Notes: generated by a model from the letters alone, not told the origin. A DNA stretch of 64,000 nucleotides from a virus (IMGVR_UViG_3300003154_000002:1-64000); one strand, 5' to 3'. Counted from the first letter of the stretch, positions 1-20,844 are shown. Made by a program: numbers and translations.

Positions 1-1
1 T

Positions 2-91
2 AGGGCTGCTAAAGTTACTTTAGAGGTAGAATCAGAACTTACACCAATTATTAAAAATGGAAGCGTTATTGATTGGGGATTAGATGACTAA
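2..91 (+). CDS. 3' end of a gene cut by the window start (...NGSVIDWGLDD*)
   Basis: Frame 2 is open from the first base to TAA 89-91. It overlaps the next ATG (84), as at many junctions here. No function can be inferred. Confidence 0.3.
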   Translation, partial: RAAKVTLEVESELTPIIKNGSVIDWGLDD

Positions 92-581
92 AAAGAAAAC
101 CAGAAAGGTTGTTATTAACAGTTGTTATGGAGGGTTTGGTTTGTCCCACGCTGGTGTGTTAGAATACTGTAAAATGAAAGGATGGCAAGTTAAATGCTGG
201 TTCGACAATTCGACAGCTAAAATTTATTTATGTCTTCAAGATGATCCTCGATTTAAGGATGAGAATATTAAAGATTCTTATGGGAAAGCAAATATTACCA
301 AAGAAGAGTTTGATAAACTCGAAGCAATGTGCTTAGATAAAGGCGAAAGACGTATGATGCTTTATCCACATTATGTGATCAAAGAAGCTAAAGATTGGTG
401 CGATAGAGATATAAAAAGAGATGATCCTACTCTGATTAAGGTTGTTGAAAAATTAGGTAGCGCTGCTAGTGGTAATTGTGCCAATCTAAGAATTGTAGAA
501 ATTCCCTCAGATATTGAATGGGTCATATCAGAATATGATGGATTAGAGTCGGTGGAAGAAAAGCACCGCTCGTGGGGGTAA
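84..581 (+). CDS. hypothetical phage protein (N-terminal NSCYGGFGLS motif)
   Basis: 165-aa ORF in the co-directional packed operon. The CYGGFGLS motif recurs in uncharacterised phage proteins, as far as I recall. Confidence 0.65.
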   Translation: MTKKKTRKVVINSCYGGFGLSHAGVLEYCKMKGWQVKCWFDNSTAKIYLCLQDDPRFKDENIKDSYGKANITKEEFDKLEAMCLDKGERRMMLYPHYVIKEAKDWCDRDIKRDDPTLIKVVEKLGSAASGNCANLRIVEIPSDIEWVISEYDGLESVEEKHRSWG

Positions 582-582
582 T

Positions 583-825
583 ATGTGTGATATTTACATG
601 CATAAATGTCCAGTATGTAACGAAGAAATAGATATGCATTTGTCTGATTTTAATACGCCGAGAGAAGAAGTAGCGGTATTTCATCAACCCTGTTTTGAAA
701 AAGCTTGTAGAGTTTGGACAGAGAAAGATTTTGGTCCGCCTTTTGAAGGTAAAAGACCTGTTGTTGTTATTAGTTTGTCTGATACAGCTTTAAAGAACAA
801 AGACGGTAATCATCCTAACTGGTAA
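583..825 (+). CDS. small Cys/His-rich hypothetical protein
   Basis: 80-aa ORF starting 2 nt after the previous stop. Contains CPVCNEE...HQPC...C. Confidence 0.55.
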   Translation: MCDIYMHKCPVCNEEIDMHLSDFNTPREEVAVFHQPCFEKACRVWTEKDFGPPFEGKRPVVVISLSDTALKNKDGNHPNW

Positions 826-833
826 AGGAATAT

Positions 834-995
834 ATGAAATATTTATTAATTAGTTTCTTATTTATAGCCGGATGCAACTCAGATAATATAAGAGCTTGTG
901 GTAGTTCTTGTAATGGTTTTATGAAAAGTTATGATACTAAAAATCAACAGTGTATCTGTATGACTTTCGAAGAAATGTGCAAGAAGGGAGAATAA
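834..995 (+). CDS. small putative lipoprotein (53 aa, below ORF-track cutoff)
   Basis: ATG at 834. MKYLLISFLFIAGC is a lipobox-like signal, followed by a Cys-rich mature part. Stop at 993-995 sits just before the next ATG (997), so the ORF fills the gap exactly. Confidence 0.5.
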   Translation: MKYLLISFLFIAGCNSDNIRACGSSCNGFMKSYDTKNQQCICMTFEEMCKKGE

Positions 996-996
996 A

Positions 997-1206
997 ATGG
1001 TACGAGTTAAATTTCATTTTGCTGATTGGCAAAAAAATGGAGTTAGTATTTTAGAAACAGAAGAAGGACAAGATTTATCGATAGGTAATTTTCATCCTGG
1101 GGCTATGTTTACCGGAACCATGGATATGGATTTACACGAATTTGCAGAAATTAAAGAGGGAGTTAATAAAGGATTTACTCCTGTTTTTACTATTTCATTT
1201 AAATGA
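997..1206 (+). CDS. hypothetical protein
   Basis: 69-aa ORF with an ATGA overlap onto the next gene. Confidence 0.55.
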   Translation: MVRVKFHFADWQKNGVSILETEEGQDLSIGNFHPGAMFTGTMDMDLHEFAEIKEGVNKGFTPVFTISFK

Positions 1207-1439
1207 GAAGAGGTTCTTTTAAATGTGGGCTTTGTGGTAAGGTATTTACCATAAATGTTAATCCACTTAGAGAATTTACAGAGGATTGTCCTAAAAATAG
1301 ACAAATAAGAACCTCTGGATCAGTACATCATTGGAATTATTCTGTCATAGAAACACTTAAAGCATTAAGAAAGGAGGGCAAAAAGAATGGTAGACAGAAA
1401 AGAATATCTGAAAGAATATCACAGCAGACCAGAAAATAA
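1203..1439 (+). CDS. small protein, IETLK-tail family member
   Basis: CGLCGK near the N-terminus and ...VIETLKALRKEG near the C-terminus. The tail overlaps the next gene by 53 nt. Confidence 0.5.
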   Translation: MRRGSFKCGLCGKVFTINVNPLREFTEDCPKNRQIRTSGSVHHWNYSVIETLKALRKEGKKNGRQKRISERISQQTRK

Positions 1440-1806
1440 AGAGCGAGAAAGAATATATAGAAAATTTTATAGACAAACAGAACAAGGAAAAGCTTCTGTA
1501 AAAAGATGTAATACTAAATATTATAAGGAAACAAAAAGAAACTGTCACCTAAAAGAAAAATATGGTTTAACATTAGCAGAATACAATGACCTACTTCGAA
1601 AACAAAACTATAAATGCGCTATTTGCGAAACTGAATATACGGGTGGAAAAAAACAGTTTAACGTAGATCATTGCCACAAAACAGGAAAGGTGAGAGAAAT
1701 TTTATGCGATAAATGCAATTGGGGATTAGGATCTTTTAATGATGACCCAAAACTCTTAGATAAAGCCTCTAATTACTTAAGGAAATACGATGATAAAACG
1801 ACATAG
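1387..1806 (+). CDS. endonuclease VII-type (His-Me finger) nuclease
   Basis: CAICE...FNVDHCHKTGKVREILCDKCNWGLGSF matches the DHCH-TG-x-R-x-LC-x2-CN signature of T4 gp49-like Endo VII. Confidence 0.85.
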   Translation: MVDRKEYLKEYHSRPENKERERIYRKFYRQTEQGKASVKRCNTKYYKETKRNCHLKEKYGLTLAEYNDLLRKQNYKCAICETEYTGGKKQFNVDHCHKTGKVREILCDKCNWGLGSFNDDPKLLDKASNYLRKYDDKTT

Positions 1807-2266
1807 GAACATAGACTTAAGTAAAAGGACGATTCCTAAGGCCCGGAAAGCGTTAAAACGGCTCGTAGAGCGACGAAAACAACGATTTGCTAGTACAGGG
1901 TTCAAAGTATTGTTACCCCCGTACAAACAGATTATAGGCCAAAGATTCAGTCAATCTCAGCTTATGTCAACGTGCCCTTATTGTAGTTCGCCGTTAATTG
2001 TAACTGAAGCTGGTACTGTATGCTCTGGTAAGAACTTACGTAAGATTGCATTAGATATTTATAATACTGTTCGTAAATGGGGTCCAAAGGCTGAATTATT
2101 CCTGAGTAAGAAGGCAAATAGATTTTTCGACATATGGATGATTCTGGGCCGAGACATGGATTGTCAGTATATTTTGGGGACGGAAGAGTCTAGATTTAGG
2201 ATTAATAATCGTATTCTTCGGCCAGGAGTGGATAGAAAAAAGATCTTTAGCAGTAAGAAGAGATAG
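1790..2266 (+). CDS. basic hypothetical protein with Zn-ribbon-like CPYC...C
   Basis: 158-aa ORF, co-directional and Lys/Arg-rich. Confidence 0.5.
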   Translation: MIKRHRNIDLSKRTIPKARKALKRLVERRKQRFASTGFKVLLPPYKQIIGQRFSQSQLMSTCPYCSSPLIVTEAGTVCSGKNLRKIALDIYNTVRKWGPKAELFLSKKANRFFDIWMILGRDMDCQYILGTEESRFRINNRILRPGVDRKKIFSSKKR

Positions 2267-2267
2267 T

Positions 2268-2777
2268 ATGCTAAGTAAAAAATGTACAGAGTGTAACAAA
2301 ATAAAACCCATAACAAAGTTTTACTTTGAGAAAAGAGGAAAGTATAATAAAAGAAGTAAGTGTATCAAGTGTTTTCTGTTTCTGACAAGAAAGTACGCAG
2401 AAGAATATAAAGAAACACGTAATAAAAAACTTAAAAAAAGAAGGGCTAATGATATTCCTTTTAAGTTATCCGAAATATTAAGAAGCAGGTTATACAAAGT
2501 TATTGTTGGTAAGGTAAAACAAGGATCGTCTGTTAGAGATTTAGGCTGTTCCATTGAATTTCTTAAAAAATATTTGGAATCAAAATTTAAGCCAAAAATG
2601 AGTTGGAAAAATTATGGTAAATGGCATATCGATCATATTTTACCGTTAAGTGAGTTCGATTTAACAAATAGAAAACAGTTTTTACAAGCTTGTAATTACA
2701 AAAATTTACAGCCGTTGTGGGCAAAAGAAAACATAGCAAAACACAATAAGACTATTTTCTCAGCTAAAAAGAAATGA
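2268..2777 (+). CDS. HNH homing endonuclease (paralog family A)
   Basis: WHIDHILPLS...NLQPLWAKEN motif. The C-terminal ~80 aa are clearly paralogous to 28007-28666 and 39804-40433. Confidence 0.85.
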   Translation: MLSKKCTECNKIKPITKFYFEKRGKYNKRSKCIKCFLFLTRKYAEEYKETRNKKLKKRRANDIPFKLSEILRSRLYKVIVGKVKQGSSVRDLGCSIEFLKKYLESKFKPKMSWKNYGKWHIDHILPLSEFDLTNRKQFLQACNYKNLQPLWAKENIAKHNKTIFSAKKK

Positions 2778-3079
2778 AAAAAGATCTCAAAAGAGCCTAT
2801 AAAGTTGGACAAGTAGTTGATTTTGCTGTTGGATATACTGAAGATTGGGCAAAAGTGTTTGATAAAACACCGGGAGTTAAGGGAAAAGGTAAAATAATAA
2901 AGATAAAGTATAGAAGGGGAAAAGGACCAATATTCCTTCCTAAACCACACTTAGATTACTTTATACAACATGAAACAATTGATGCTATGGGAAATAAGAA
3001 ATATAAGGTGTGGATATGTGATTATTGGCGTTTGGGTAAGATACATATATTAGATACTTGGAGAGCTGCTAAGAAATAA
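2774..3079 (+). CDS. small protein, IETLK-tail family (divergent)
   Basis: N-terminal YKVGQVVDF and C-terminal ILDTWRAAKK. Confidence 0.55.
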   Translation: MKKDLKRAYKVGQVVDFAVGYTEDWAKVFDKTPGVKGKGKIIKIKYRRGKGPIFLPKPHLDYFIQHETIDAMGNKKYKVWICDYWRLGKIHILDTWRAAKK

Positions 3080-3294
3080 TGTATAAAGTTGGTGACATAG
3101 TAAAATTTCGTCCGAGATTTTCACCGAAAACGGTGAGAACGGGAATGATAATTCGTATGTCAAATGGTACGTATACAATAATGCAATTAGATGGGCTTAG
3201 TGCAGAGCAAACTAGTTATAGAAATATCCTAAGTTTAGATGTTATCAGTAAACTAAAGTACATCAAAAAATGCTACAAAAAGGAGAAAAAATGA
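3079..3294 (+). CDS. small protein, IETLK-tail family
   Basis: MYKVGDIVKF... at the start and ...VISKLKYIKK at the end. Confidence 0.55.
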   Translation: MYKVGDIVKFRPRFSPKTVRTGMIIRMSNGTYTIMQLDGLSAEQTSYRNILSLDVISKLKYIKKCYKKEKK

Positions 3295-3521
3295 ACGAGT
3301 CTGTTAATTATTATTATCCGCGAAATAAAGACGGGCAAAGAATGGGGCATTCTATTGCTGTTATTCAAAAAGAGGGTAAGGTGTTTGTTGGTTTCTCTCT
3401 GCTAGGAAAGGGAGATAAATTTAATCGTAAGATTGGTAGAGCTATTGCTGAATCCAGAGCGAGAAAACAAATCGAACAATACGAAAACAGAAAGAATAAC
3501 CCATTTACTGCGAAGAATTGA
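3291..3521 (+). CDS. hypothetical protein
   Basis: Start refined to ATG 3291, which follows AAAGGAGAAAAA. The track start is 3270. Confidence 0.6.
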   Translation: MNESVNYYYPRNKDGQRMGHSIAVIQKEGKVFVGFSLLGKGDKFNRKIGRAIAESRARKQIEQYENRKNNPFTAKN

Positions 3522-3527
3522 GGATAT

Positions 3528-3815
3528 GTGTTAAAGAGGGGACAGATTGTAAAGATTAAACCGAACTTCTATAAAGTTTGCAATAATGAAAATATAGAAG
3601 ATTACATTACCTGTAAGGTAAATCATTCCGGTAAGAATCTTATGGGCGAAGTTATGGAATGTGTTTATTGCGGGGATGGAATGTATAGCGTATTATTATT
3701 GCTAAATACTTGCGGAGAATTGCATCCTATTGTAGTTGAGCCAAAAGACGTTAAGATTGATACAATTAAAACTCTTAAGAACCTTAAGAAGAGAAAATGT
3801 GCCCTATTAAAGTAG
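3528..3815 (+). CDS. small protein, IETLK-tail family
   Basis: MLKRGQIVKI... and ...IDTIKTLKNLKK. Confidence 0.6.
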   Translation: MLKRGQIVKIKPNFYKVCNNENIEDYITCKVNHSGKNLMGEVMECVYCGDGMYSVLLLLNTCGELHPIVVEPKDVKIDTIKTLKNLKKRKCALLK

Positions 3816-4123
3816 GGGATTACATAAAGCTTAATGTACCTTTTGAAGAAGTTAATGCTTGGAATTTAGCTGCGGCTATGGGTGCATTAGCTACAAAACA
3901 TAAAATATGTTGTACCGATCATGAAGAGAAAAAGATTATAGCTGAAGTTATTGAACAGAAATCAATGAATTATGGTGGTACTCGGCCCGGAGAGAAATAT
4001 TTAATAACTCTAACGTTCGTTAAACTCAACGTATGCGAAGGCGTACATTGTATTTTAATTGATGAAAGAGATTGTACGTTTTACCCCATAGGTATACTTA
4101 AAGCCGCTAAGAGTAACAAATGA
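3797..4123 (+). CDS. small protein, IETLK-tail family
   Basis: IKVGDYIKL... and ...PIGILKAAKSNK. Confidence 0.6.
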   Translation: MCPIKVGDYIKLNVPFEEVNAWNLAAAMGALATKHKICCTDHEEKKIIAEVIEQKSMNYGGTRPGEKYLITLTFVKLNVCEGVHCILIDERDCTFYPIGILKAAKSNK

Positions 4124-4371
4124 TTAAAGTTGGACAAGTATATACATGCAAAGTTTGCATGAATGGGGGATGTCTTCTGAGAATAGAAAATATTGACATA
4201 CACAATAGAATAGAATATGCGACGTTCGATGATAAAGCAGGTTGTAGAAAATCAACAACTACGACAGCAGAAAGCTATATAAAATCGGGCGAAATGAAAC
4301 TTGAACCAATTAAAACCCTAAAATATATGAAGGAGAATAAGTGTACTGCGTCAATTGCGGAAAAAAACTAA
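4120..4371 (+). CDS. small protein, IETLK-tail family (CxxC subgroup)
   Basis: MIKVGQVYTCKVCMNGGC... and ...PIKTLKYMKENK. Confidence 0.6.
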   Translation: MIKVGQVYTCKVCMNGGCLLRIENIDIHNRIEYATFDDKAGCRKSTTTTAESYIKSGEMKLEPIKTLKYMKENKCTASIAEKN

Positions 4372-4535
4372 AAACAAAAGATTCCAAGTTTGAGGTTGTT
4401 TGTGACGAATTTTGTCTTGAAGGAGCTATGAAATATGACGAACTACTTAAAAGTGTTGGACCTGATAAAGCTCGAAACCTCTGGAAAAGAGAAAGAACGC
4501 ATTCTAAAAACAAACGACTCGGTAGAGCTGCGTGA
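4341..4535 (+). CDS. possible small Zn-ribbon protein (uncertain)
   Basis: GTG start after AAGGAG. Has CVNCGKK...C..FC but overlaps the ligase by about 100 nt out of frame. Confidence 0.3.
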   Translation: MYCVNCGKKLKTKDSKFEVVCDEFCLEGAMKYDELLKSVGPDKARNLWKRERTHSKNKRLGRAA

Positions 4536-5670
4536 ATATCTTTCTATTGCGCTCGATAAAGACAGGGTATATCACGTAAAAAAGTTTCCGACAGGGTTAG
4601 TTGGGGATAAAGTGTTTTCGTCCGTTTCCGGTAAAGGGTTTATTAAATTTAAAAACTTAATTAAACTATTGGAGACAAATGAAATCAGCGGTCACTTGGC
4701 TCAAAATACAATCTTTGATTGTTTTGGTTCATTTACACCAAAAGAGCAAGAATGGTATCGCAAGGCTTTGCTTAAAGAGGCTATTAATATTGGTCGTGAA
4801 ATTGTAAATAAGGCTTTCCCCAAGTTAGTAAACAAATTTGTTGTAATGCTCGCCCCGAATACCCAGCCGGATTTGGACAATATTAAATATCCTAAGATCA
4901 TTCAACCTAAGATTGATGGTTTTAGGGCTATTTATATTCCGGGGCAAGGTTTAGTTGGCCGGAACGGAAAGAAGATTAGGAATACAAACTTACATGAACA
5001 TTTCTTAAGCTTATACATGACAAATACGCATGTATTTGACGGTGAGCTATATTGCCACGGCGTTGGGTTCAATAAAGTAGCTTCAGTGTTAAATAGTGCA
5101 GCGGGCGTTATCCCATTTGGCTTAAAATACCATGTTTTTGATGGTATGACGACCTCGGAATGGGCAAAAAAGAAGTGTTCGACCAAATACGAGGATAGAC
5201 TCTCTACATTTCAGGAATTAGATAAGGTTGCCCCGCTTAAGAATGTTAACGTGTTGGGGGCTGAAAAGGTTAGTTCCAAACAAGAAGCAATGAACAAATA
5301 TTCATTGTATATTAAGGGCGGATATGAAGGGGCTATGTTAAAAGACCCTGATTCCATATATACATGGAAAAGAGTCACACTAAAATCTGAAGTATTGCTT
5401 AAAGTTAAGCCCTATGTTACAGAAGACCTAAAGATTGTCGGTTGCGAAGAGGGTGAAGGAAAGTATGTTGGTAAGTTGGGCAAATTGATAGTCGATTATA
5501 AGGGCGTCTCAGTCGGGGTAGGCACCGGGTTTACGGACGAGGAAAGATCGTCGCTCTGGAGCCAAAAGAACGCGTTACAGGGGCGATTTATCGAGGTCCG
5601 GGGAATGGAAATCACGGCTGATAAATCAATTAGGCATCCGGTATACATTAGATTTAGAGACGACAAATGA
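4435..5670 (+). CDS. ATP-dependent DNA ligase
   Basis: Motif I PKIDGFRAI (KxDG adenylation lysine), motif III VFDGELY, motif IV EGAMLK, motif V LLKVKP. Confidence 0.9.
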   Translation: MTNYLKVLDLIKLETSGKEKERILKTNDSVELREYLSIALDKDRVYHVKKFPTGLVGDKVFSSVSGKGFIKFKNLIKLLETNEISGHLAQNTIFDCFGSFTPKEQEWYRKALLKEAINIGREIVNKAFPKLVNKFVVMLAPNTQPDLDNIKYPKIIQPKIDGFRAIYIPGQGLVGRNGKKIRNTNLHEHFLSLYMTNTHVFDGELYCHGVGFNKVASVLNSAAGVIPFGLKYHVFDGMTTSEWAKKKCSTKYEDRLSTFQELDKVAPLKNVNVLGAEKVSSKQEAMNKYSLYIKGGYEGAMLKDPDSIYTWKRVTLKSEVLLKVKPYVTEDLKIVGCEEGEGKYVGKLGKLIVDYKGVSVGVGTGFTDEERSSLWSQKNALQGRFIEVRGMEITADKSIRHPVYIRFRDDK

Positions 5671-5897
5671 TTCCTAAAGTAGGACAAGTTTATAATTGTA
5701 ATATGTGCAATAACAAATGTGCGTTTAGCATAATAAGAATAAGAAACAATAAACTGTTTTACAAATATCTAAGTTATGTGAAGAGAGAAAAGTGTTGTAG
5801 AGCATTTGATGATATTTATGATTTTTGCGAACATCTCCATAACGGTTACTTTATATTAAATACTATTGAAACTTTGAAGGAATATAAAAAGAAATGA
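5667..5897 (+). CDS. small protein, IETLK-tail family (CxxC subgroup)
   Basis: IPKVGQVYNCNMCNNKC... and ...TIETLKEYKKK. Confidence 0.6.
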   Translation: MIPKVGQVYNCNMCNNKCAFSIIRIRNNKLFYKYLSYVKREKCCRAFDDIYDFCEHLHNGYFILNTIETLKEYKKK

Positions 5898-6163
5898 TTC
5901 CAATTGAAATAGGACAAATATATAAATGTTTCTCTTGCGAAAAAGGATGCAGAGAAAGAGTGACAAGAATAACAAAAGATAGAGTTAAGTATGTACCTCT
6001 TCAACCAAAACTAAGAGATAGTGACTGTTACGCGGTAGATGGATACGATAATTCTGAGACAAAGAAAGAATATATTAGTATGATAGAACAGAAAACCCTA
6101 AAATTAGAACCTATCAGTATCTTAAAATACTACAAGAAAGTGGGGAGAAATGACTCACGCTAG
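5894..6163 (+). CDS. small protein, IETLK-tail family (CxxC subgroup)
   Basis: IEIGQIYKCFSCEKGC... and ...PISILKYYKK. Confidence 0.6.
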   Translation: MIPIEIGQIYKCFSCEKGCRERVTRITKDRVKYVPLQPKLRDSDCYAVDGYDNSETKKEYISMIEQKTLKLEPISILKYYKKVGRNDSR

Positions 6164-6341
6164 AGCGACTGCTATTGCTAAACTGTTAGCAGAGAAAGAT
6201 TTTAAGGATTTGCTGTACCTCAAGTTTGGTTCCGAGGGGTATAACGGAGAAGACTTAATTGAAGTACTTCAACAAATATCCGATAAAGAATTAGAACTAA
6301 CTAGGAATAGACAGAATGAAACGGATTCAGACTCCGATTAG
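6150..6341 (+). CDS. small acidic hypothetical protein
   Basis: 63-aa ORF, co-directional, overlapping its neighbours. Confidence 0.5.
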   Translation: MTHARATAIAKLLAEKDFKDLLYLKFGSEGYNGEDLIEVLQQISDKELELTRNRQNETDSDSD

Positions 6342-6585
6342 TCTTAATCAAGTTAGAGCCTTAATCAAAGAACGTCACCCAAATTTACCCTACAAAATTG
6401 CTAAATGTGAGGATACAGAAGATGTAGAACTTATTGTTAATAACAGACTTATTATAGATTTCGTTCGTACAGAGAAAACAGCAATGTCTCATTTATACCA
6501 ATCACCAGATGATTGGCAAATATATAACTACAAAATAAACTATATTAAAACACTTAAGTTCTTAAAAGAAAAGAATGCCAAATAA
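6316..6585 (+). CDS. small protein, IETLK-tail family
   Basis: C-terminal ...YIKTLKFLKEKNAK. Confidence 0.55.
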   Translation: MKRIQTPISLNQVRALIKERHPNLPYKIAKCEDTEDVELIVNNRLIIDFVRTEKTAMSHLYQSPDDWQIYNYKINYIKTLKFLKEKNAK

Positions 6586-6784
6586 AATTAGATCTGGAAA
6601 ATACTGTCAAGAATGTTCTTGCTATTATTGCCCATTGGCTACTATAGAGGGATATTCCAACGATGATAGCGAAGAATGTGCTAGATGCATAAATACTAAA
6701 GATGAATGCGAATCTTGTGGGGGAACTGGATACGAACAAATAACTGTAATTGAATATTTAAAGAGATTAAAGAATGGAAGATAA
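6575..6784 (+). CDS. small Cys-rich protein, IETLK-tail family
   Basis: CQECSCYYC...CARC...CESCGG followed by VIEYLKRLKNG. Confidence 0.55.
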   Translation: MPNKIRSGKYCQECSCYYCPLATIEGYSNDDSEECARCINTKDECESCGGTGYEQITVIEYLKRLKNGR

Positions 6785-7232
6785 GTCACATAAAACTGCT
6801 ATCTATAGAGCTAAACCTAGTAACCCTACAAAGTATTTAGCGAATAGTGGATTGATTAATTATCCGGCTTTAGATTATGGGAGTGGGCATGGAAAAGATG
6901 CTGATGTCTATAATCTTGATAAGTATGATCCCCATTACTATCCGCAGAAACCACAGAAAGAATATAAGACCGTTGTTTGTAATTACGTTCTTAATGTTCT
7001 GGATAAGGATAAAGCTCCGGAAGTATTTAAGGGTATTAAAGACGTATTGACAAATGATGGAATAGCGTATATAACTGTTCGTCGGGATATTAAAGAACCT
7101 ATTAAAACTAAAATAGGAACATTACAAAGACCTGTATATTTAGGTCTTAAAACAGTTAAGAAAACCAAAGATTTTGAAATGTATTCGATGACAAAAGAAG
7201 ATGAACCAGAGGAGGTAGACAATGGGGACTAA
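6774..7232 (+). CDS. SAM-dependent methyltransferase-like protein
   Basis: ALDYGSGHGKD resembles class I MTase motif I. VVCNYVLNVL and DGIAYITV resemble the following strands. No DPPY/NPPY DNA-MTase motif is seen. Confidence 0.5.
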   Translation: MEDKSHKTAIYRAKPSNPTKYLANSGLINYPALDYGSGHGKDADVYNLDKYDPHYYPQKPQKEYKTVVCNYVLNVLDKDKAPEVFKGIKDVLTNDGIAYITVRRDIKEPIKTKIGTLQRPVYLGLKTVKKTKDFEMYSMTKEDEPEEVDNGD

Positions 7233-7551
7233 CTATTACGTAAAAGCGCATAATTGTCCTTTTTGTAGCCGATTCGATGAAATACACATTGGTAAATCTT
7301 CGATAGGATGGAAACCATTACTTCACGCCAACCAATATAAATACTATAAAAATTGGGAAGAAATGAAAGAATGGTTGAAGGATCAAAAGATATACGACGA
7401 ATATGATAGGCAAATCGATTATGATAAATTTGTTAACTTTTTTGAAGAAAAACAAAAAGACCCAAAAAATCTTGAACATTTGCCAGAACATTTTATAGAT
7501 GGAGATAAAAAGATTGACGGGTGGGATTTTCTTAACCATTATTTTAGTTAA
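7222..7551 (+). CDS. hypothetical protein
   Basis: 109-aa ORF containing NYYVKAHNCPFC...IHIGKSSIGW. Confidence 0.55.
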   Translation: MGTNYYVKAHNCPFCSRFDEIHIGKSSIGWKPLLHANQYKYYKNWEEMKEWLKDQKIYDEYDRQIDYDKFVNFFEEKQKDPKNLEHLPEHFIDGDKKIDGWDFLNHYFS

Positions 7552-7562
7552 AGGAGAATAAA

Positions 7563-8159
7563 TTGAAGCTACCATACGACCTTTGTGTAATTGACCTAGA
7601 AAGTAATGGTCCAAGTGGGCCTATTATTGAAATTGGAGCTACAGTACTAACTCGTAAAGGTATTATACTTGGAGAGTATCAACAGTTTGTGAAGATTAGT
7701 GAGGCTCTTAAGCCTGAAATTACAGAGCTAACTGGTATTACAGAGGAGAATCTAAGCGTAGGAGGCTTGCCCTTTGTAGCTGCACTTGAAGGCTTTGTTA
7801 AATGGATACAGAAAGAGCTAGGTACAAAGAACTTTCTAATTGCCTCATGGAGCAATTGGGATACTGCTACGCTTCGTAAGGAGTGTGAACAGTGCAATAT
7901 AGAGTATCCTTTCAGAGGCAAGACACTAGACGTTAAGAGTGTTGTATTGTGGATGTCCTACCTTATGGATAGAGATGTACATGGTGAGGGACTAGGGAAT
8001 ATGCTAGAGTGTTGGGATCTTAAGTTTGTTGGTTCCCCACATTCTGCCCGATGTGATGCTAAAAATACAGCTATTCTTCTAAAGACTGTTTGGGAATACT
8101 ATGATAAGAGGTCGGATATCCTCCTTACAACTATCCGAGAGCTGGGACTAGCAAAGTGA
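7563..8159 (+). CDS. DEDDh 3'-5' exonuclease (DnaQ/KapD-like)
   Basis: TTG start after AAGGAG. Exo I CVIDLESNG, Exo II SWSNWDTA, Exo III HSARCDAKNTA (H-x4-D). Confidence 0.8.
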   Translation: MKLPYDLCVIDLESNGPSGPIIEIGATVLTRKGIILGEYQQFVKISEALKPEITELTGITEENLSVGGLPFVAALEGFVKWIQKELGTKNFLIASWSNWDTATLRKECEQCNIEYPFRGKTLDVKSVVLWMSYLMDRDVHGEGLGNMLECWDLKFVGSPHSARCDAKNTAILLKTVWEYYDKRSDILLTTIRELGLAK

Positions 8160-8425
8160 CTACAAAGAAAGACGAAAGAGTAACTTACAAAGTTGGGCAA
8201 ATCGTTAAAGTAAAGAAACAATACTATCCAGATCAAAACGTTACTGGCATGGTTGTAGCTACTAGAATAGATAACCCGGATAGTTACTTAGTTACTTGGT
8301 ATGAAGCACATGAAGCATGGACAAAAACAAGCGATATTATCGAAGTCTGCCCTATTGAAACTTTAAAAGCAGCTAAGAATAACCCGGAAGTAGAGGAGCT
8401 ATTGAATGACTGCAAAACAAGTTAA
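8156..8425 (+). CDS. small protein, IETLK-tail family
   Basis: YKVGQIVKVK... and ...PIETLKAAKNN. Confidence 0.6.
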   Translation: MTTKKDERVTYKVGQIVKVKKQYYPDQNVTGMVVATRIDNPDSYLVTWYEAHEAWTKTSDIIEVCPIETLKAAKNNPEVEELLNDCKTS

Positions 8426-8657
8426 ACTTATAGTAGCTGAAGTAGAGAAAGCTCTAATGGCTACTTATGGTTTAGCTAAAATGGTTACTCCTAAACAACA
8501 GGAGTTTTTAGACTTGGTAGCTAAGAATATTAAACCTATTAAGTTTAAGGAGAATAAGAATGTCGTGGAAGATGCTACCGGGTTGGAAGATGCTACCGTT
8601 AAACACACAGCAACAAATAAAATATCGGGGACAGAGAGCGGGGAAGACTTACACTAG
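8406..8657 (+). CDS. hypothetical protein
   Basis: 83-aa ORF. Contains the VEDATG/LEDATV duplication encoded by a 15-nt direct repeat at 8566-8598. Confidence 0.45.
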   Translation: MTAKQVKLIVAEVEKALMATYGLAKMVTPKQQEFLDLVAKNIKPIKFKENKNVVEDATGLEDATVKHTATNKISGTESGEDLH

Positions 8658-8664
8658 TCTTAAT

Positions 8665-9159
8665 ATGGTATTAAATCCTGTTTCTGGTGGGGCTTTCATT
8701 AAGCCCGGTAAAGAGACTTATGTTAAGCTTCAAAAGAACACAGTAGTAAAACTTGTAACTGGCATTAGGGTAGAAGTTTCTACTACTCTCTCCAAGTTTT
8801 GGAAAGGTATGGATAAAGTTAAAAAAGGTATGTTAGAAAGGGAGGATCAATTTTGGCGTAAATATGACGACTATGAGTTTGTCAAGGAAAAAGTAATTTC
8901 TTTAGCACAATCCTACAAAATTGCTAAATATGCTATTGTTAGAAAGTTTGAAAGCTACGGATACGATGGTAGTGCTATGTGTGGTCGTTATGATTGTGCC
9001 CTTATGGATAGTACCGGAATCATTTTAGCGCTTCATCGTTGTGTTGATATTACACAAGAAGATAAGCCAGATACTATCAAAACACTTAAGTTAGCGAAAT
9101 CATTGAAGAATCGTAAATACGTAAAATATTTGATGAATAAAAGTTACCTTTCGTTATAA
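8665..9159 (+). CDS. hypothetical protein, IETLK-tail family
   Basis: Start refined to ATG 8665, just after the stop of the previous gene (track start 8560). C-terminal ...DTIKTLKLAKSLKNRK. Confidence 0.55.
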   Translation: MVLNPVSGGAFIKPGKETYVKLQKNTVVKLVTGIRVEVSTTLSKFWKGMDKVKKGMLEREDQFWRKYDDYEFVKEKVISLAQSYKIAKYAIVRKFESYGYDGSAMCGRYDCALMDSTGIILALHRCVDITQEDKPDTIKTLKLAKSLKNRKYVKYLMNKSYLSL

Positions 9160-9173
9160 ATACTATAATAATC
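9149..9173 (+). repeat. 25-bp exact repeat TTTCGTTATAAATACTATAATAATC (copy 1), containing TATAAT
   Basis: Identical to 18452-18476. Spans the last codons and stop of the upstream gene and runs into the intergenic spacer. Confidence 0.9.
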
Positions 9174-9185
9174 CATGGTATTTAT

Positions 9186-9482
9186 ATGAAGGAAGATTTC
9201 TTAGACATTTCTTACGACTATTTAGAAGAATGTGTAAACGCTATTAAAAATCTTCTAAAAAATAATTATCCTAATTTGGAGTATTATTTTACTAAAGATA
9301 TTACAACGAATAGAATTAAGTTATTTATTCAAAATAAGGTTTTTAATCTTGTCCCAGAAACAATAGAAGTAAATTCATATGGATATCGTTTTAGTTATAC
9401 GACTTATAGGATCACTACAAACGTTGGAGATACGTTAAAAATACTTAAGAGTAAGGAAAATAATGGACAAAATAAAGTGTAG
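9186..9482 (+). CDS. hypothetical protein, IETLK-tail family
   Basis: C-terminal ...GDTLKILKSKENN. Confidence 0.55.
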   Translation: MKEDFLDISYDYLEECVNAIKNLLKNNYPNLEYYFTKDITTNRIKLFIQNKVFNLVPETIEVNSYGYRFSYTTYRITTNVGDTLKILKSKENNGQNKV

Positions 9483-9720
9483 TTTTTTCGGTTGTCAGAA
9501 CATAATGGACGTTAAAAACAACGAAGTAAAAGCGATTAATATTCGTAATGATGGGCACAGATTTGTGTGTTTATCTCATTATAATTTTGTTAAAGAAAAC
9601 AATATTAAACCGTCTTTAGAATTAATTTATGGACCAAAAAAAGAGAGGAAGCATGAAAACAAAAACTTTTTTCGTAACCAAAAACGGCCAAATTGGAAGG
9701 CACAAACTCCGAAAGACTGA
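9463..9720 (+). CDS. hypothetical protein
   Basis: 85-aa co-directional ORF. Its basic tail overlaps the next gene. Confidence 0.45.
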   Translation: MDKIKCSFFGCQNIMDVKNNEVKAINIRNDGHRFVCLSHYNFVKENNIKPSLELIYGPKKERKHENKNFFRNQKRPNWKAQTPKD

Positions 9721-9916
9721 AATTGCCGGTTGTGGTATTATGTATCCTGATCAAAACGTTATTGTTTATACAAAGTTAGGCAATAAATATCCGTTTAATT
9801 TTGATGAGATTCATGTCGGAACTCATGCTATGACTCAACTTGTTATGTTAGCTGAAGGAGACGAAATTATCAAGTTAGACTTAGTTACTGACACAACTGT
9901 TCATCCTTCTACTTAA
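9629..9916 (+). CDS. hypothetical protein
   Basis: 95-aa ORF. ATG 9653, after GAGAGGAAG, is a more likely start. Confidence 0.5.
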   Translation: MDQKKRGSMKTKTFFVTKNGQIGRHKLRKTEIAGCGIMYPDQNVIVYTKLGNKYPFNFDEIHVGTHAMTQLVMLAEGDEIIKLDLVTDTTVHPST

Positions 9917-10052
9917 GTATACCGTATACTTCTTATTCTTATATATAACTAAGAAATAAAGAAAATGAAACTAATACGTTCTACATAAATGGAATGTATA
10001 TAGATATACCGTTTACGTAGCTATTATTTAAGTTACATATACTAGGAGACAA

Positions 10053-10271
10053 ATGAAAATCAACATTGGTGATACTGTAGTTCCTAATTACTATCTCGGT
10101 ACAATCGTTAACATTGACGAAACTCAAGTAACTATTGAATATAAAAATTACATGGGTGATATCCGTCATAGTTATCTAACCGAAGAACAAGCTAAGTCTA
10201 AAGGAAAAACACTAGAACAACATGTTGATGATTCTTTAATAATCATACAAAGGAAAGAGTATAATGAATAA
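10053..10271 (+). CDS. hypothetical protein
   Basis: ATG follows TAGGAGAC. First gene after the 136-bp non-coding gap. Confidence 0.55.
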   Translation: MKINIGDTVVPNYYLGTIVNIDETQVTIEYKNYMGDIRHSYLTEEQAKSKGKTLEQHVDDSLIIIQRKEYNE

Positions 10272-10599
10272 GTTGTTTACTGCTTTAGTTATTGCTGGAT
10301 GTTTACTGTTAGCTCCGTTGGCTAAGGCTCAAAGTTGGACTCAATGTCCCCGTATACCAACAGACGAAATTACTCAGTTTGGTATGAATTCAAACGTAGA
10401 CCTTACGTTTATGGTTCACGTAAACGAAAAGGGAGAGTTAGAATATTGGGCCTATTTAACAGAACCACATGTAGTAAGAGCAGACGGAGTTTATAAAGGT
10501 ATTCCAGCGTACAAGAGTGGTTTTAGAAAGTTTATAGAAACATTAGGTGAAGGTTCTGGAGATGGATACGAACCGCCAGCTAGTAGGCGTTGGAGGTAA
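10264..10599 (+). CDS. secreted protein or lipoprotein
   Basis: N-terminal MNKLFTALVIAGCLLLAPLAKAQS is a signal peptide with a possible IAGC lipobox. Confidence 0.6.
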   Translation: MNKLFTALVIAGCLLLAPLAKAQSWTQCPRIPTDEITQFGMNSNVDLTFMVHVNEKGELEYWAYLTEPHVVRADGVYKGIPAYKSGFRKFIETLGEGSGDGYEPPASRRWR

Positions 10600-10600
10600 A

Positions 10601-10804
10601 ATGAGTAAAAACGTTACATATGAAATAGATAAAGAACATTACGGTTTATTTAAGAAAACAGTAAAAACTGGTGCCTTCTTCAAGAAAGACACTAAGATTG
10701 AGATAACGTTTGAAGAATTAACAGAAAGAGAACAGGCTATTTATGATTTTTTTATGAATAAGATATATAGCCTTGAATATCCTCCTAAAAAGAAACACAA
10801 ATGA
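10601..10804 (+). CDS. hypothetical protein
   Basis: Start refined to ATG 10601 after GGAGGTAAA (track start 10547). Confidence 0.55.
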   Translation: MSKNVTYEIDKEHYGLFKKTVKTGAFFKKDTKIEITFEELTEREQAIYDFFMNKIYSLEYPPKKKHK

Positions 10805-11172
10805 TTAACGAAAAACCAATGCAGTTAGCAAAACGAATGTCTTATCTTGGAATAGGACGAGTAAGAATAGGAGCCGTATTGGTAAACGGTAAAAACGTAT
10901 TTAGTGGTTTTAATAAATCAAATAAAACACATCCTCTTTGTTCTACAAATAGTTATAGAAGGCTTCACGCAGAAATTAGTTGTTGCGTAGGAAGAGATAG
11001 AAGTACGCTAGAGGGAGGAACAATGTACGTTTACCGAGAGGACAGAGAAGGACGAATAGCAATATCTAAACCTTGTCCCAACTGTCAAGAGTATCTTAGA
11101 GTAGTCGGGATTAAAAGATGTTATTATACAGATCCTAGAATAATCGGAAATGTGGGAATGATAAATTTATGA
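10801..11172 (+). CDS. dCMP/cytidine deaminase-family zinc enzyme
   Basis: HAE (LHAEISC) plus PCPNC, the H-A-E...P-C-x2-C zinc-binding signature. Confidence 0.8.
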   Translation: MINEKPMQLAKRMSYLGIGRVRIGAVLVNGKNVFSGFNKSNKTHPLCSTNSYRRLHAEISCCVGRDRSTLEGGTMYVYREDREGRIAISKPCPNCQEYLRVVGIKRCYYTDPRIIGNVGMINL

Positions 11173-11483
11173 GGTATCGTTTTATAAAACTTATTCGCAA
11201 AGAGGACGAAACAGGAATTAGCGGAACAGGAGAGGTAGCAAATGGAATCGTTCTACCATCAGGTAAAGCAGTACTTTGGTGGAACACACAAGTAACATCA
11301 GTAGCGATTTACGATAGTTTAACAAACGTCATTGATTTACACGGCCACAACGGAAAGACGGACGTTGTAGATATTACGGACCCAGAAGAACTCTTAGAAT
11401 TATTTGGTATCGAATCTAAAACGTGTTTGAAGAAATCTTATTGCAAGAGGCATAATGGAACAGAAACAAAAAGAACCGTATAA
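11169..11483 (+). CDS. hypothetical protein
   Basis: 104-aa ORF with an ATGA overlap. Confidence 0.6.
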   Translation: MRYRFIKLIRKEDETGISGTGEVANGIVLPSGKAVLWWNTQVTSVAIYDSLTNVIDLHGHNGKTDVVDITDPEELLELFGIESKTCLKKSYCKRHNGTETKRTV

Positions 11484-12165
11484 GTTTAAACCTATTAATC
11501 CTACAATTCTTCAATTACAAGTGTTGAAAGAGCAAGGAGCTAATCCTGACGCTAAATACTTTCAGTTGATTAATTTCAAAAAGTATAGGTCAGAACAAAC
11601 GACTACGATTCAATTCGAAAAAGGTATACCTTCTGTTACCTTTGATGAATCTGGAAAAGAAGTTCGCCACAGATATTACAGGGACAAAAAGATCGAATGT
11701 AATAGTTGGGTGATTTCGAAATTGTTTATTCCAATTAAGGACTTCAAAGTAGAAATTATAAAAAATGCCGGTCATTATTTTAGCGATAGCGGCGATACAA
11801 TAATGTTTGATAGAATCGGAGTTTTTCTTCCGACAAACGTCTTTCTTACTGTAGAAACACCTAGAGCGTTAAACGACACGGTTGCTAAGAAACTTAAATC
11901 TTACATTAAAGACTATTGTTTTACTTGTGTATTTAGAACTACGGCTCATACAAACGAGTATATTTGTTCTCAGACTTCGGCTATAAAGAAAGTAGAAAAA
12001 GAAAACGACTACAATTTAGCTTTTAACATGTTAACTCAGTACGCTAACCTTTCTCGTAAGAATTGGTCGTTCGTTAAATATGAACCAAAGAATTACGTAG
12101 CATTAGATCCTTATAACATTAAGCTTAGAGAAGAGTTAATCTCTTACACGGACGAGGTGATATGA
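11455..12165 (+). CDS. hypothetical protein
   Basis: 236-aa ORF with no recognisable motif. Confidence 0.6.
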   Translation: MEQKQKEPYKFKPINPTILQLQVLKEQGANPDAKYFQLINFKKYRSEQTTTIQFEKGIPSVTFDESGKEVRHRYYRDKKIECNSWVISKLFIPIKDFKVEIIKNAGHYFSDSGDTIMFDRIGVFLPTNVFLTVETPRALNDTVAKKLKSYIKDYCFTCVFRTTAHTNEYICSQTSAIKKVEKENDYNLAFNMLTQYANLSRKNWSFVKYEPKNYVALDPYNIKLREELISYTDEVI

Positions 12166-12284
12166 ACAAATATGAATGTCCTATTTGTGGAGCTGGAGAT
12201 AATAAACATTTTCATTTAGATCCAGTTACAGGTAAGATTATTGAGATAAGAGAAGATTATAGAGAATTTTATACTGGTTGTTAA
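12162..12284 (+). CDS. possible 40-aa Zn-ribbon peptide (below track cutoff)
   Basis: ATGA overlap with the previous stop. Begins MNKYECPICGAGDNKHFH... Confidence 0.4.
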   Translation: MNKYECPICGAGDNKHFHLDPVTGKIIEIREDYREFYTGC

Positions 12285-12291
12285 AAGGAAT

Positions 12292-12380
12292 CCTCCTGAT
12301 CCGAAGCGGAACGTCAGTCTTATAAACTGAGCGCACTAGATTGGTGCCGGTTGTAGGGGCAGTACCTACCAGGAGGACCA
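12292..12380 (+). tRNA. non-canonical type II (long variable arm) tRNA-like gene, anticodon UAU
   Basis: 7-bp acceptor CCTCCTG/CAGGAGG followed by A and CCA. Anticodon arm TCAGT-CTTATAA-ACTGA. Extra arm GCAC-TAGATTG-GTGC. T arm GTAGG-GGCAGTA-CCTAC, with no T-Psi-C. The D region CCGAAGCGGAACG is short and cannot form a normal D stem. Confidence 0.45.
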
Positions 12381-12387
12381 AACTTAT

Positions 12388-12762
12388 ATGAAATATAAAT
12401 GTAGAATATGTAATAAATTTCTATCTAAGTCTAAATTTTACTCCTCTAATTATAGAGGTAGAAAAAGTGTTCAGTCAGCTTGTATTAGATGTAAGCACTT
12501 AGACGATAAAAAACGAAGAGATGAATGTATAGCATTCTTTAATTCCGAAAAGGAAAAGACCCCATGCGTAGATTGCGGAGGTTATTTCCCCGGATGCGTG
12601 ATGGATTATCATCACATAAAGAACAAAAAGTACGAAGTATCTAAATTAATACGCGGTAGTAGATCTTCTAAGGAAACTATTTTAAAAGAGATAGCAAAAT
12701 GTATTGTTATTTGTGCTAATTGTCACAGAATAAGAACTCAAAAATTAAATAAGAATTTATGA
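12388..12762 (+). CDS. HNH endonuclease
   Basis: CVDCGG...DYHHIKNK...CANCHRIRT (HNH with a CxxC pair). Confidence 0.8.
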   Translation: MKYKCRICNKFLSKSKFYSSNYRGRKSVQSACIRCKHLDDKKRRDECIAFFNSEKEKTPCVDCGGYFPGCVMDYHHIKNKKYEVSKLIRGSRSSKETILKEIAKCIVICANCHRIRTQKLNKNL

Positions 12763-12858: not shown

Positions 12859-13068
12859 ATGGAATCAAAATCGACACCGAAATCGAAAGCAACAGCAGCA
12901 ACAAGTACAACGACAAGTAAGAAGTCAAAGGCTGGCGGAGAGGCTAAAAAGAAAGACATTAAAGTTAAGTCTTATATGAAGAAGTCTGGTGCTTATTATA
13001 CTCCGTTCAAGCGTACAAAGCAGAAACCAGCAAGCGTAAAGGATCAATTCTCTGGAAAAAAGGCGTAA
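12859..13068 (+). CDS. Lys/Ser/Thr-rich basic protein
   Basis: Start refined to ATG 12859 after AGAAGGAAAAGA. Low-complexity basic sequence KSKATAATSTTTSKKSKAGGEAKKK. Confidence 0.5.
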   Translation: MESKSTPKSKATAATSTTTSKKSKAGGEAKKKDIKVKSYMKKSGAYYTPFKRTKQKPASVKDQFSGKKA

Positions 13069-13072
13069 TAAA

Positions 13073-13246
13073 ATGAGTTTTAGACAATGGATAAGAATTC
13101 CTTTGTATGATCCTTTTTGTAAACCTGGATGTTTAGCGTGTAAATTTAATGACATGTTAATGACATCTGCCATTTTGTTTGCGTCATTTAATTTTTCCTT
13201 TTGTCTAACCTTAGTTTTAATCCAAAAATTAGGATATCTTAAATAA
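13073..13246 (+). CDS. possible 57-aa hydrophobic/Cys peptide (below cutoff)
   Basis: Fills the 13069-13247 gap exactly. Preferred over the antisense ORF 12925-13281. Confidence 0.35.
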   Translation: MSFRQWIRIPLYDPFCKPGCLACKFNDMLMTSAILFASFNFSFCLTLVLIQKLGYLK

Positions 13247-15129: not shown

Positions 15130-15808
15130 GTTGCAAGAAAAGATGGGGAACGACCGCAGTATAGCGATGGCTGCGTGGACTTCTAGTATTGATAAGTCCC
15201 GTGCAGAGGAAAGACCAGAAAACGATATAACTAAAGTTATTAAGATGTTAGCAGAAGGTGGACACGGCGTACCATTTGAATCTGTTGTACTTAGATTCTG
15301 GATTAGGATGCCCCTGTTTTGTGACCGACAATTAATGACACACCGAGTCGCATCTCATTCAGGAATGTCTGGAAGATACCGCACAATGCCTAACGATCAT
15401 TACATTATTCCTGAAGACGTTCTTGAGTTAATGAATAAGGTAGCCAATGATTGTTCTCAAGGGAAACAACTAGTTTCCAATTTAGAATTTATGTCCGATG
15501 CATCAATAAGCGCGTATTCAGACATGATGTATTTTGCTAAGAAAAGCAAAGATGTTGGAACAATTACAAACGATGAATACAAACGTATTCGAGAAATCGC
15601 TAGAGGAGTAATGCCTCAATCGGCTATGACAGAACGTGTTACTATTATGAATTTGCGGAGTTTTGCTAATTTTTATAGACTACGTTCAGATAGCCACGCC
15701 CAACCAGAGATTCAACAAGTAGCTAAGTTGATGATGCAAGAAGTTAAAGAAAGTAATATTTGTCCTATAGCGTTAGAAGAGTTAGAAAAAGTTGGATGGA
15801 AGATATAA
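15104..15808 (+). CDS. thyX: FAD-dependent thymidylate synthase ThyX
   Basis: THRVASHSGMSGRY matches the ThyX RHRxxSxxxxSxR signature. Length (234 aa) is typical. Confidence 0.9.
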   Translation: MGLEQIKVELQEKMGNDRSIAMAAWTSSIDKSRAEERPENDITKVIKMLAEGGHGVPFESVVLRFWIRMPLFCDRQLMTHRVASHSGMSGRYRTMPNDHYIIPEDVLELMNKVANDCSQGKQLVSNLEFMSDASISAYSDMMYFAKKSKDVGTITNDEYKRIREIARGVMPQSAMTERVTIMNLRSFANFYRLRSDSHAQPEIQQVAKLMMQEVKESNICPIALEELEKVGWKI

Positions 15809-15812
15809 TCGT

Positions 15813-20605: not shown

Positions 20606-20672
20606 AGAAAGAGTACAAAACTACAGAGCTATCATAGACGATTTAGAAGAACTAAAAAATGAAGAGGTATAA
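20454..20672 (+). CDS. coiled-coil hypothetical protein
   Basis: ATG 20454 (or 20463) after GGGAG. Heptad-like MERIEQKIDKYKNLLAQ...LEELKNEE. Confidence 0.5.
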   Translation: MNLMERIEQKIDKYKNLLAQTVVVLQALKKKDTGDKKTNILVKTIQLPELKERVQNYRAIIDDLEELKNEEV

Positions 20673-20844
20673 ATGTACAATTTGTGGTTTTGTCTGTAGT
20701 CTTACTTATAGAACAAAATTTCCAATAAAAAGTACGGATTTATACGCCAAAAATGGAGATATTCTTAGTGTAGGACACATACACAATTTTAAATTCTCAA
20801 CAATAGAAACCCTAAAGGCGATAAAGAATGAAGCTAAGACTTAG
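20659..20844 (+). CDS. small protein, IETLK-tail family (CxxC subgroup)
   Basis: RYKCTICGFVC... and ...STIETLKAIKNEAKT. Confidence 0.55.
   Translation: MKRYKCTICGFVCSLTYRTKFPIKSTDLYAKNGDILSVGHIHNFKFSTIETLKAIKNEAKT

Follow-up and report, generated by a model that had tools for sequence, protein, structure and literature searches.

Why would fourteen small proteins of a single phage carry nearly the same short stretch close to their C-termini, on bodies that otherwise have little in common? The question is raised by a viral DNA stretch of 64,000 nucleotides (nt), IMGVR_UViG_3300003154_000002:1-64000, here called the window, for which a preliminary description made from the sequence alone had proposed a family of fourteen small proteins with a shared [IL]-x-[TI]-L-K-x-x-K tail. 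All fourteen open reading frames (ORFs) that it listed, and their tails, translate as claimed at the positions given, and the members are designated below by the first coordinate of each ORF. The window lies in a contig of 117,406 bp from whole-genome shotgun project AMWB02, an electrogenic-biofilm metagenome (PMC4595844). Its genes encode a tail sheath and baseplate J together with a family A DNA polymerase, a DnaB-like helicase and an ATP-dependent ligase, there are two tRNA genes, and its source is an uncultured tailed phage of the myovirus type.

The answer that we favour, with a confidence that falls somewhat short of even, is that these proteins, a multigene family specific to one lineage, would be small accessory proteins whose common helix serves for interaction. 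Each protein has two parts, a variable head and a constant C-terminal unit of about 16 residues. The head would be an SH3/KOW-like β-barrel, a small Cys/His-rich putative zinc-binding module, or another fold, and the constant unit would run from a β-strand (h-x-h-x-[PTV]) into a basic amphipathic helix, I-[EKD]-T-L-K-x-h-K-[KN]-x-K. The helix would bring the different heads to one common partner, for which a host or phage protein surface, nucleic acid, or other family members contacted by helix-helix association are candidates; the preliminary description had named a host hub protein as a possible docking partner. The rapid change of the heads would provide the variety that accessories for host takeover or anti-defence are expected to show. 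No part of phage genomes is less understood than the small genes of early-type blocks, and if the tail is a common adaptor, one peptide binding experiment would give a handle on fourteen proteins.

A tail selected as a peptide

The strict motif [IL]-x-[TI]-L-K-x-x-K occurs nine times in the 90 + strand gene models of the window, each time in a small protein and no more than 27 residues from its C-terminus, and not once in the 24 minus-strand gene models. Whole-protein shuffles (2000) gave a mean of 0.20 matches and a maximum of 4, with 0.04 expected within 30 amino acids (aa) of the C-terminal end, where all nine are observed; this control, which the preliminary description had named, places the motif rate far above chance. 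The genome has a G+C content of 35% and its protein ends are Lys-rich, so that a compositional artefact of Lys-rich C-termini in an AT-rich phage might be suspected. However, a shuffle confined to the last 30 aa of the early-block proteins, which keeps their Lys richness, leaves 0.035 matches expected against the eight observed, and Lys-rich composition is therefore not the cause. The motif is moreover conserved in orthologues and has no matches in other frames or on the other strand, nor in two distantly related loci (L001 and L002), and the probability left to chance or composition is negligible.

A six-frame scan of the window with a position-specific scoring matrix (PSSM) of the tail recovered exactly the fourteen listed sites, all of them in the coding frame, with scores of 23.5-34.6 for the members and 9.8 for the next best site; the same PSSM matched nothing in L001 and L002. 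When each member is left out in turn, nine score strongly, the 1203 protein is borderline (15.1), and four are degenerate, namely 3079 (10.3), 9186 (8.9), 6575 (4.7) and 2774 (2.1). The other end of the proteins is also enriched, as the N-terminal motif [KREI][VIR]G[QD][IVY] is found within the first 16 aa of eight members against 0.05 expected. The eight K-V-G-[QD]-[IVY] starts that had been reported are six exact cases, with KRGQ in the 3528 protein and EIGQ in the 5894 protein, and three of the eight do proceed to C-x2-C-x3/4-C, in agreement with the reported CxxC.

The eight-residue core first described is found, but the conserved unit is longer, about 16 residues, and can be written as h-x-h-x-[PTV]-I-[EKD]-T-L-K-x-h-K-[KN]-x-K, in which an alternating, strand-like part leads into a helix-like part (for example DVKIDTIKTLKNLKKRK). 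In an alignment of 26 tails, the polar residues T(-1), K(+1) and K(+4) vary hardly more than the hydrophobic I(-3) and L(0), and position +3 is hydrophobic and differs by head class. The tail carries a net charge of +1 to +9 in 24 of the 26, with head charges ranging from -9 to +12. Placement at the extreme C-terminus, as originally proposed, has to be given up: the conserved Leu lies 6 to 27 residues ahead of the stop, and residues after position +7 are poorly conserved.

This placement bears on another explanation, by which the basic helix is a sorting or turnover signal, read by a protease or unfoldase or by a packaging or export machine; in its turnover version, early proteins would be removed at a set time. 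C-terminal recognition tags, including basic ClpX recognition tails, offer an analogy, and both the occurrence of a common C-terminal element on otherwise diverse proteins and the Lys/Arg-rich ends that follow the helix would suit such a signal. On the other hand, C-terminal degrons normally depend on terminal residues, and a motif at a variable distance of 6 to 27 residues from the C-terminus with poor conservation beyond +7 does not behave in this way; in addition, the genes are grouped with replication genes and not with virion genes. We regard a sorting or turnover signal as improbable. Two further candidates were rejected, a membrane-targeting helix, as the tail is too polar, and a precursor family of ribosomally synthesized and post-translationally modified peptides, as the members are 61-164 aa long with folded heads.

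The tail is also kept in relatives of this phage. A HMMER search of 1.84 billion representatives with an eight-member profile found, beyond the window proteins, only P0007, P0015 and P0021, the remaining matches being long repeat proteins aligned to the N-terminal third of the profile only. P0007 led to a syntenic 98-kb Logan contig (L003) that holds orthologues of ten window members, and all ten retain the tail; the 2774 and 9186 tails, degenerate in the window, are canonical in their L003 orthologues. P0015 (...CTIKTLKHYRN) and P0021 (KVGQVV start) adjoin on a 1.7-kb Joint Genome Institute contig. A profile search with head class VII (see below) added P0029, whose body is 36% identical and has lost its Cys/His residues and whose end is still DSIKTLKLAKAK. 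On the contig of P0029 (L005) there are also an 8156 orthologue and a further body, new and 70 aa long, that ends in VIDTLEYKK. The tail thus persists in every related contig found (L003, the P0015/P0021 contig and L005), as homologues in related phages had to if the first proposal was to stand.

The selection acts on the peptide. Third positions of the I, T and L codons in the tails hold 0.19-0.57 bits of information against up to 1.6 at first and second positions; Thr is encoded by all four of its codons and Leu by both CTN and TTR. Among the ten window/L003 orthologue pairs, tail-core residues are conserved at 57 of 80 positions (71%) against 356 of 792 (45%) elsewhere (Fisher p 1e-5), and codon differences are synonymous in 57% of cases within the tail and in 25% outside it (p 2e-6). 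The tail is therefore selected as a peptide and is under stronger purifying selection than the heads; the preliminary description, which had argued for peptide selection from third-position variation, was right in this respect.

These data leave a very low probability to the view that the peptide motif is a by-product of a DNA- or RNA-level element, be it a regulatory site, a translational coupling signal or a recombination junction. Such a view could draw on the tight packing of the genes with frequent 4-nt overlaps, on window/L003 indels that remove or replace whole cassettes at gene ends, and on a headless tail-like start in L003 (9393-9758, described below with the 4120 protein) that could be a deletion scar. 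However, synonymous positions are near random, with Leu codons changing between CTN and TTR, differences between orthologous tails are mostly synonymous, the longest identical run common to paralogous tails is 14 nt, and indels at gene boundaries are expected for any viable gain or loss of cassettes. The recombination junctions at gene ends that had been suggested are accordingly not borne out, the paralogous tails having at most 14 identical bases and randomised synonymous sites. Members differ in how far the motif lies from the next start codon, which argues against coupling or a ribosome-binding signal; the motif was rejected as a ribosome-binding site or A-rich leader of the next gene for this reason and because its information lies in the I, T and L codons.

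Heads, predicted structure and the role of the helix

Comparison of the tail-less proteins, by all-against-all BLAST and by profile-profile alignment, sorts the heads into about seven classes and agrees with the earlier statement that the bodies are otherwise dissimilar between the two ends. In class I, the 3528 and 3797 proteins have a KxGQ/D start and a C-x3-H...C-x3-H pattern; class II (8156, 3079 and 2774) has a KOW-like first strand and no Cys/His pattern; class III (4120, 5667 and 5894) starts with KVGQ[VI]Y-C-x2-C-x3/4-C and has a later Cys; class IV (1203 and 20659) has a CxxC and His residues; class V comprises 9186 and probably 6316; class VI (6575) is Cys-rich and CxxCxGxG-like; and class VII is formed by 8665. 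In the profile comparison, classes I and II, and I and III, are linked through 9-14 N-terminal columns only, and III and IV weakly through the CxxC; classes V, VI and VII have no link to the others except the tail.

The C-x3-H...C-x3-H pattern of class I is invariant in five sequences (3528, 3797, L003 8563-8835, L003 9082-9396 and P0015), as are G5, E41, L59 and D74. This invariance suggests that the pattern is probably a zinc site inside an SH3-like barrel, and we know of no described family with this arrangement. An AlphaFold2 model of the 3528 protein, built from a four-sequence alignment with a predicted local distance difference test (pLDDT) score of 76, has five strands and then, at residues 79-93, the helix of the tail; the tail motif has a pLDDT of about 80-85 and forms an ordered helix straight after the last strand. 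The tail is thus predicted to be a β-strand and basic amphipathic helix continuous with the fold, not a floppy peptide. A single-sequence AlphaFold2 model of the 8156 protein (four strands, helix 67-73) has a pLDDT of 52 and is too weak to use.

Foldseek matches of the 3528 model in the PDB are to NusG KOW, Spt5, PWWP and PetP and are weak, with expectation values (E) of at least 0.09 and template-modelling (TM) scores of 0.39-0.47; the best viral match has E 3.3e-3. No fold match is better than weak (E 3e-3 or worse, TM 0.39-0.50), and the matches are consistently to small β-barrels and to small phage proteins that are uncharacterised, T4 P39415 being one example. Ten members were scanned against Pfam, and at E up to 1 none matched a KOW or SH3 family; the KOW-like K-V-G-[QD]-I-V-K pattern in class I and II heads is recognised by eye only.

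The strongest competitor, and a serious one, is that the helix is purely structural, which we consider less likely than the interaction reading, though much more likely than the other rivals above. By this account, one ancestral small β-rich protein was duplicated in tandem to give all or most members, and the conserved ends are its folding core, with no partner involved: the first strand, KVGQ[IV], and the last strand with its capping helix, IxTLKxhK, were kept, and the middle diverged or was replaced by zinc-knuckle insertions. Eight members do have both ends in common, classes I, II and III are joined through the N-terminal motif and III and IV weakly through the CxxC, and AlphaFold2 places the tail as an ordered helix after strand 5 of the barrel. 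PWWP and PetP, which have C-terminal helices packed on the barrel, are SH3-like domains among the weak Foldseek matches; the class-specific hydrophobic residue at +3 and the degenerate copies, which retain hydrophobic residues and not K, point the same way. Nevertheless, classes V, VI and VII have the same tail with no head similarity to the rest, the polar T and two K residues are conserved nearly like I and L in all classes, and the P0029 head has lost its Cys/His residues at 36% identity with the tail still IKTLKLAK. If the helix is structural only, the family would be a clean case of an unusually large phage paralogous family with frozen ends and a free middle.

The reading of the helix as an interaction module draws on these last features. 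T and both K residues are near-invariant across otherwise unlike head classes, which is more than simple helix packing would require, and the tail survives a radical change of head, as in P0029. The nearly constant positive charge of the tails, against head charges of either sign, also speaks for this reading and would suit nucleic acid as a partner. Whole-gene gain and loss fits fast-evolving accessory genes: between the window and L003 or L005 the 3079 gene is absent from L003, the 4120 gene is replaced, and extra members occur in L003 and L005.

Several observations weigh against an interaction helix. The tail is predicted to be ordered right after the last strand and could just pack on its own head, and the hydrophobic, class-specific position +3 suggests contact with that head. 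Eight of the fourteen members share the N-terminal motif too, so that most members could be one very divergent family with the ends as its structural core. Two additional copies have degenerate tails, PLEALECARR in L003 2900-3151 (PLEALECARRINGK) and VIDTLEYKK in L005 995-1207 (VIDTLEYKKNYKK), in which the hydrophobic positions are kept and a conserved Lys is changed to Glu. As for timing, the family block is probably expressed early, judging from gene position, and a consensus scan found no excess of promoters or terminators in the block. Considered for themselves, L003 2900-3151 and L005 995-1207 are possible natural controls for the role of the Lys residues.

A bolder form of the interaction reading, which we find doubtful, is that the tail is a portable adaptor by which at least six unrelated heads plug, via one C-terminal helix, into a single hub, be it a machine of the host, a scaffold of the phage or a hetero-oligomer that the family members form. 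If true, this would be a phage 'effector tail' system in which new heads are placed before an old tail, and to our knowledge nothing like it has been described for bacteriophages.

Members of the family and their genomic surroundings

The tail-bearing genes lie in a tightly packed block of small + strand genes upstream of the replication genes, where neighbours often overlap by 4 nt. Thirteen interspersed tandem copies occur at 1.2-9.5 kb and one at 20.7 kb, all on the + strand; from 1.2 to 9.5 kb, across some 8 kb, about one gene in two belongs to the family.

The class I heads belong to two neighbouring ORFs. The 3528 protein (3528..3815) has a KRGQIV start, the invariant C-x3-H...C-x3-H and the tail IKTLKNLK at 3765-3788, and its orthologues L003 8563-8835 and P0015 retain TIKTLK. 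The 3797 protein (3797..4123) starts with IKVGDY, has the C-x3-H...C-x3-H pattern and the tail IGILKAAK at 4088-4111, and its body aligns for the greater part with that of the 3528 orthologue in L003 (E 8.8e-5); its own orthologue, L003 9082-9396, retains VIGKLKAAKKNK.

In class II, the 2774 protein (2774..3079) has a KOW/SH3-like head with a YKVGQVV start and the degenerate tail LDTWRAAK at 3050-3073, for which the L003 orthologue (8043-8348, P0007, 72% identical) has the canonical HLDTLKAARK and the relative P0021 has HPLETLKNAKK. The 3079 protein (3079..3294) starts with MYKVGDIVKF and has the tail ISKLKYIK at 3244-3267; its gene is wholly absent from L003, and it gives the sole library match of the fourteen members, to phrog_1945 (unknown function; E 2.2e-5, residues 2-71). 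The 8156 protein (8156..8425) has a KOW-like head starting with YKVGQIVKV and the tail IETLKAAK at 8354-8377, and CPIETLK is invariant across it and its orthologues L003 14630-14902 and L005 630-917. These three proteins also have a second conserved segment after the tail, P-x-[VIL]-[EK]-E-L, owing to which this orthologue group is the only class with a net acidic tail region.

Among the class III members, the 4120 protein (4120..4371; KVGQVY-C-x2-C-x4-C...C, tail IKTLKYMK at 4309-4332) has the highest PSSM score of the family. Its gene is replaced in L003 by an unrelated 121-aa ORF with a tail-like LIYLKLLKAAKENK at the N-terminus. This ORF (L003 9393-9758) opens with a headless tail-like motif, MNKKEQTNHTLIYLKLLKAAKENKPC, ten codons past the normal tail of the preceding gene, and the motif resembles the tail of the replaced window protein (LKYMKENKC); it may be a head-deletion scar or a tail fused before a new body. 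The 5667 protein (5667..5897; KVGQVY-C-x2-C-x3-C, tail IETLKEYK at 5865-5888) has an L003 orthologue at 12066-12296 that retains VIETLKSLKK, and the 5894 protein (5894..6163; EIGQIY-C-x2-C-x3-C, tail ISILKYYK at 6113-6136) has one at 12293-12523 with VVKTLKYLRR.

Class IV is formed by two paralogues with similar bodies (E 1.5e-4). The 1203 protein (1203..1439) has a CxxC...C...HH putative zinc ribbon and the tail core IETLKALR at 1347-1370, and its L003 orthologue (7422-7595) retains ITDTLKILK. The positional outlier, the 20659 protein (20659..20844), has a YKCTICG...HIH head, the tail IETLKAIK at 20803-20826 and a leave-one-out PSSM score of 24.6, and its gene is directly upstream of a PD-(D/E)XK nuclease gene.

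In class V, the 9186 protein (9186..9482) has the tail GDTLKILK at 9426-9449 and an L003 orthologue (15576-15872) with the canonical TIETLKRIKN. The 6316 protein (6316..6585) has a class V-like head with an N-terminal helix, an h-P-N-L-x-Y segment and no KVGQ, the tail IKTLKFLK at 6544-6567, a leave-one-out PSSM score of 17.2 and no orthologue in L003. The class VI protein, 6575 (6575..6784), is Cys-rich and CxxCxGxG-like with a deviant tail, IEYLKRLK at 6749-6772, and its L003 orthologue (12907-13167) retains IVEYLKRLHN; it has no match to Pfam PF00684 (DnaJ_CXXCXGXG), for which the orthologue reaches 14.5 bits (E 0.045) against a cut-off of 32.7. The class VII protein, 8665 (8665..9159), has a head in a 164-aa protein, its longest ORF starting from 8560, and the tail IKTLKLAK at 9076-9099; its orthologues L003 15130-15561 and P0029 (36% identical) retain [DI][TIS]IKTLKLAK.

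Two other genes are found amid the family members and are absent at the syntenic positions of L003. One is an Endonuclease_7 gene at 1387-1806 (Pfam, E 4.5e-26), which is overlapped by the final 53 nt of the 1203 ORF, and the other is a Cys-rich 169-aa ORF at 2268-2777 with no Pfam match. L003 has its own Endonuclease_7 gene at 11093-11590, after the ligase, and the pattern of presence and absence looks like mobile homing-endonuclease turnover. Downstream of the block, L003 17394-17711 bears a precomputed Pfam label, PF26761 (Acb5, a family directed against the cyclic oligonucleotide-based antiphage signalling system, CBASS); the nearly identical window gene at 11169-11483 had no Pfam match at E up to 0.01. 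Provided that the label is correct, the family block is directly followed by an anti-defence gene.

The window has a G+C content of about 35% and a coding-strand switch near 40.5 kb. Phage-borne tRNA genes for Asn (GTT) and Met (CAT) lie at 15813-15887 and 18498-18572, and a full-length IMPDH/GMP reductase-type gene (Pfam IMPDH, E 1.2e-86) closes the + strand block at 38069-39097 and may have an auxiliary role in nucleotide metabolism. No close relative was found among 50,697 GenBank phage records (megablast, window 1-12000), in which the best match to the window DNA polymerase is only 29% identical and comes from Flavobacterium phages.

Comparison with known systems

Searches of Pfam, PHROGs, PDB sequences, IMG/VR and metagenome and genome contig collections found no family member outside this lineage, the tail alone on unrelated proteins not having been searched for. 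The thirteen members other than 3079 have no PHROG match, and tblastn of the 3079 and 8156 proteins against the GenBank phage records gave nothing significant. IMG/VR scans with the ligase, the exonuclease and the 8156 and 3528 orthologue groups returned only two 30%-identical ligase loci that lack tails; metagenome and genome contig scans gave no close relative, and an exact window 40-mer is absent from the genome contigs. Word-indexed profile searches with classes I-III, class II and class VII returned members of this lineage only, and the tail profile had one chance-level match among the PDB sequences. The claim that no described family has this signature therefore holds for Pfam, PHROGs and PDB sequences, with phrog_1945 as the only match, and the family is new to these three resources, rare and lineage-specific.

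Small β-barrels of the SH3, KOW, Tudor and PWWP types are the nearest structural comparison. Class I and II heads open with a KOW-like K-x-G-[QD]-x-V-K-[VIF] strand, the 3528 model has five strands and a C-terminal helix, and the 3079 protein matches phrog_1945. In contrast, the fold matches are weak, no Pfam KOW or SH3 match was obtained, only about five of the fourteen members have such a head, and the TLK tail is not a described feature of these groups or of phrog_1945. Chromatin proteins of the Sso7d/Cren7 type combine an SH3-like barrel with a Lys-rich C-terminal helix, and by analogy, if class I and II members are small basic β-barrels with such a short amphipathic helix, nucleic acid would suit them as a partner; however, there is no sequence match or significant fold match to them, and the heads of the other classes differ.

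The best functional precedent for many heads, one tail and one partner is found in phage T4, where the C-terminal tails of gp43, gp33 and gp55, which are much alike and can be interchanged, dock to the gp45 clamp and are hydrophobic and acidic in composition (PMC2988020). The likeness is that of one short motif on otherwise unrelated proteins of one phage, as is found here with about seven head classes. The family tail differs in lying 6-27 residues from the stop as a predicted ordered helix and not at the extreme terminus on a flexible linker, in being basic (net +1 to +9 in 24 of 26), and in having fourteen carriers in this phage against three in T4. Since the defining features of the clamp tails are lacking, the family is not a member of that system, though it may work like one.

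An analogy can also be drawn with eukaryotic viruses. Poxvirus ankyrin proteins combine a variable part with a constant C-terminal PRANC/F-box-like domain that plugs into one host hub. As in the present family, there are many paralogues per viral genome, with what would be a variable recognition part and a constant C-terminal module; the poxvirus module is on the other hand a folded domain of about 50 residues with a known partner, from viruses of eukaryotes, and has no sequence relation to the tail. By this analogy, the family would take its place among viral multigene families with a constant module, and if the tail is an adaptor, phages would diversify host-directed proteins with a constant docking helix much as some eukaryotic viruses do.

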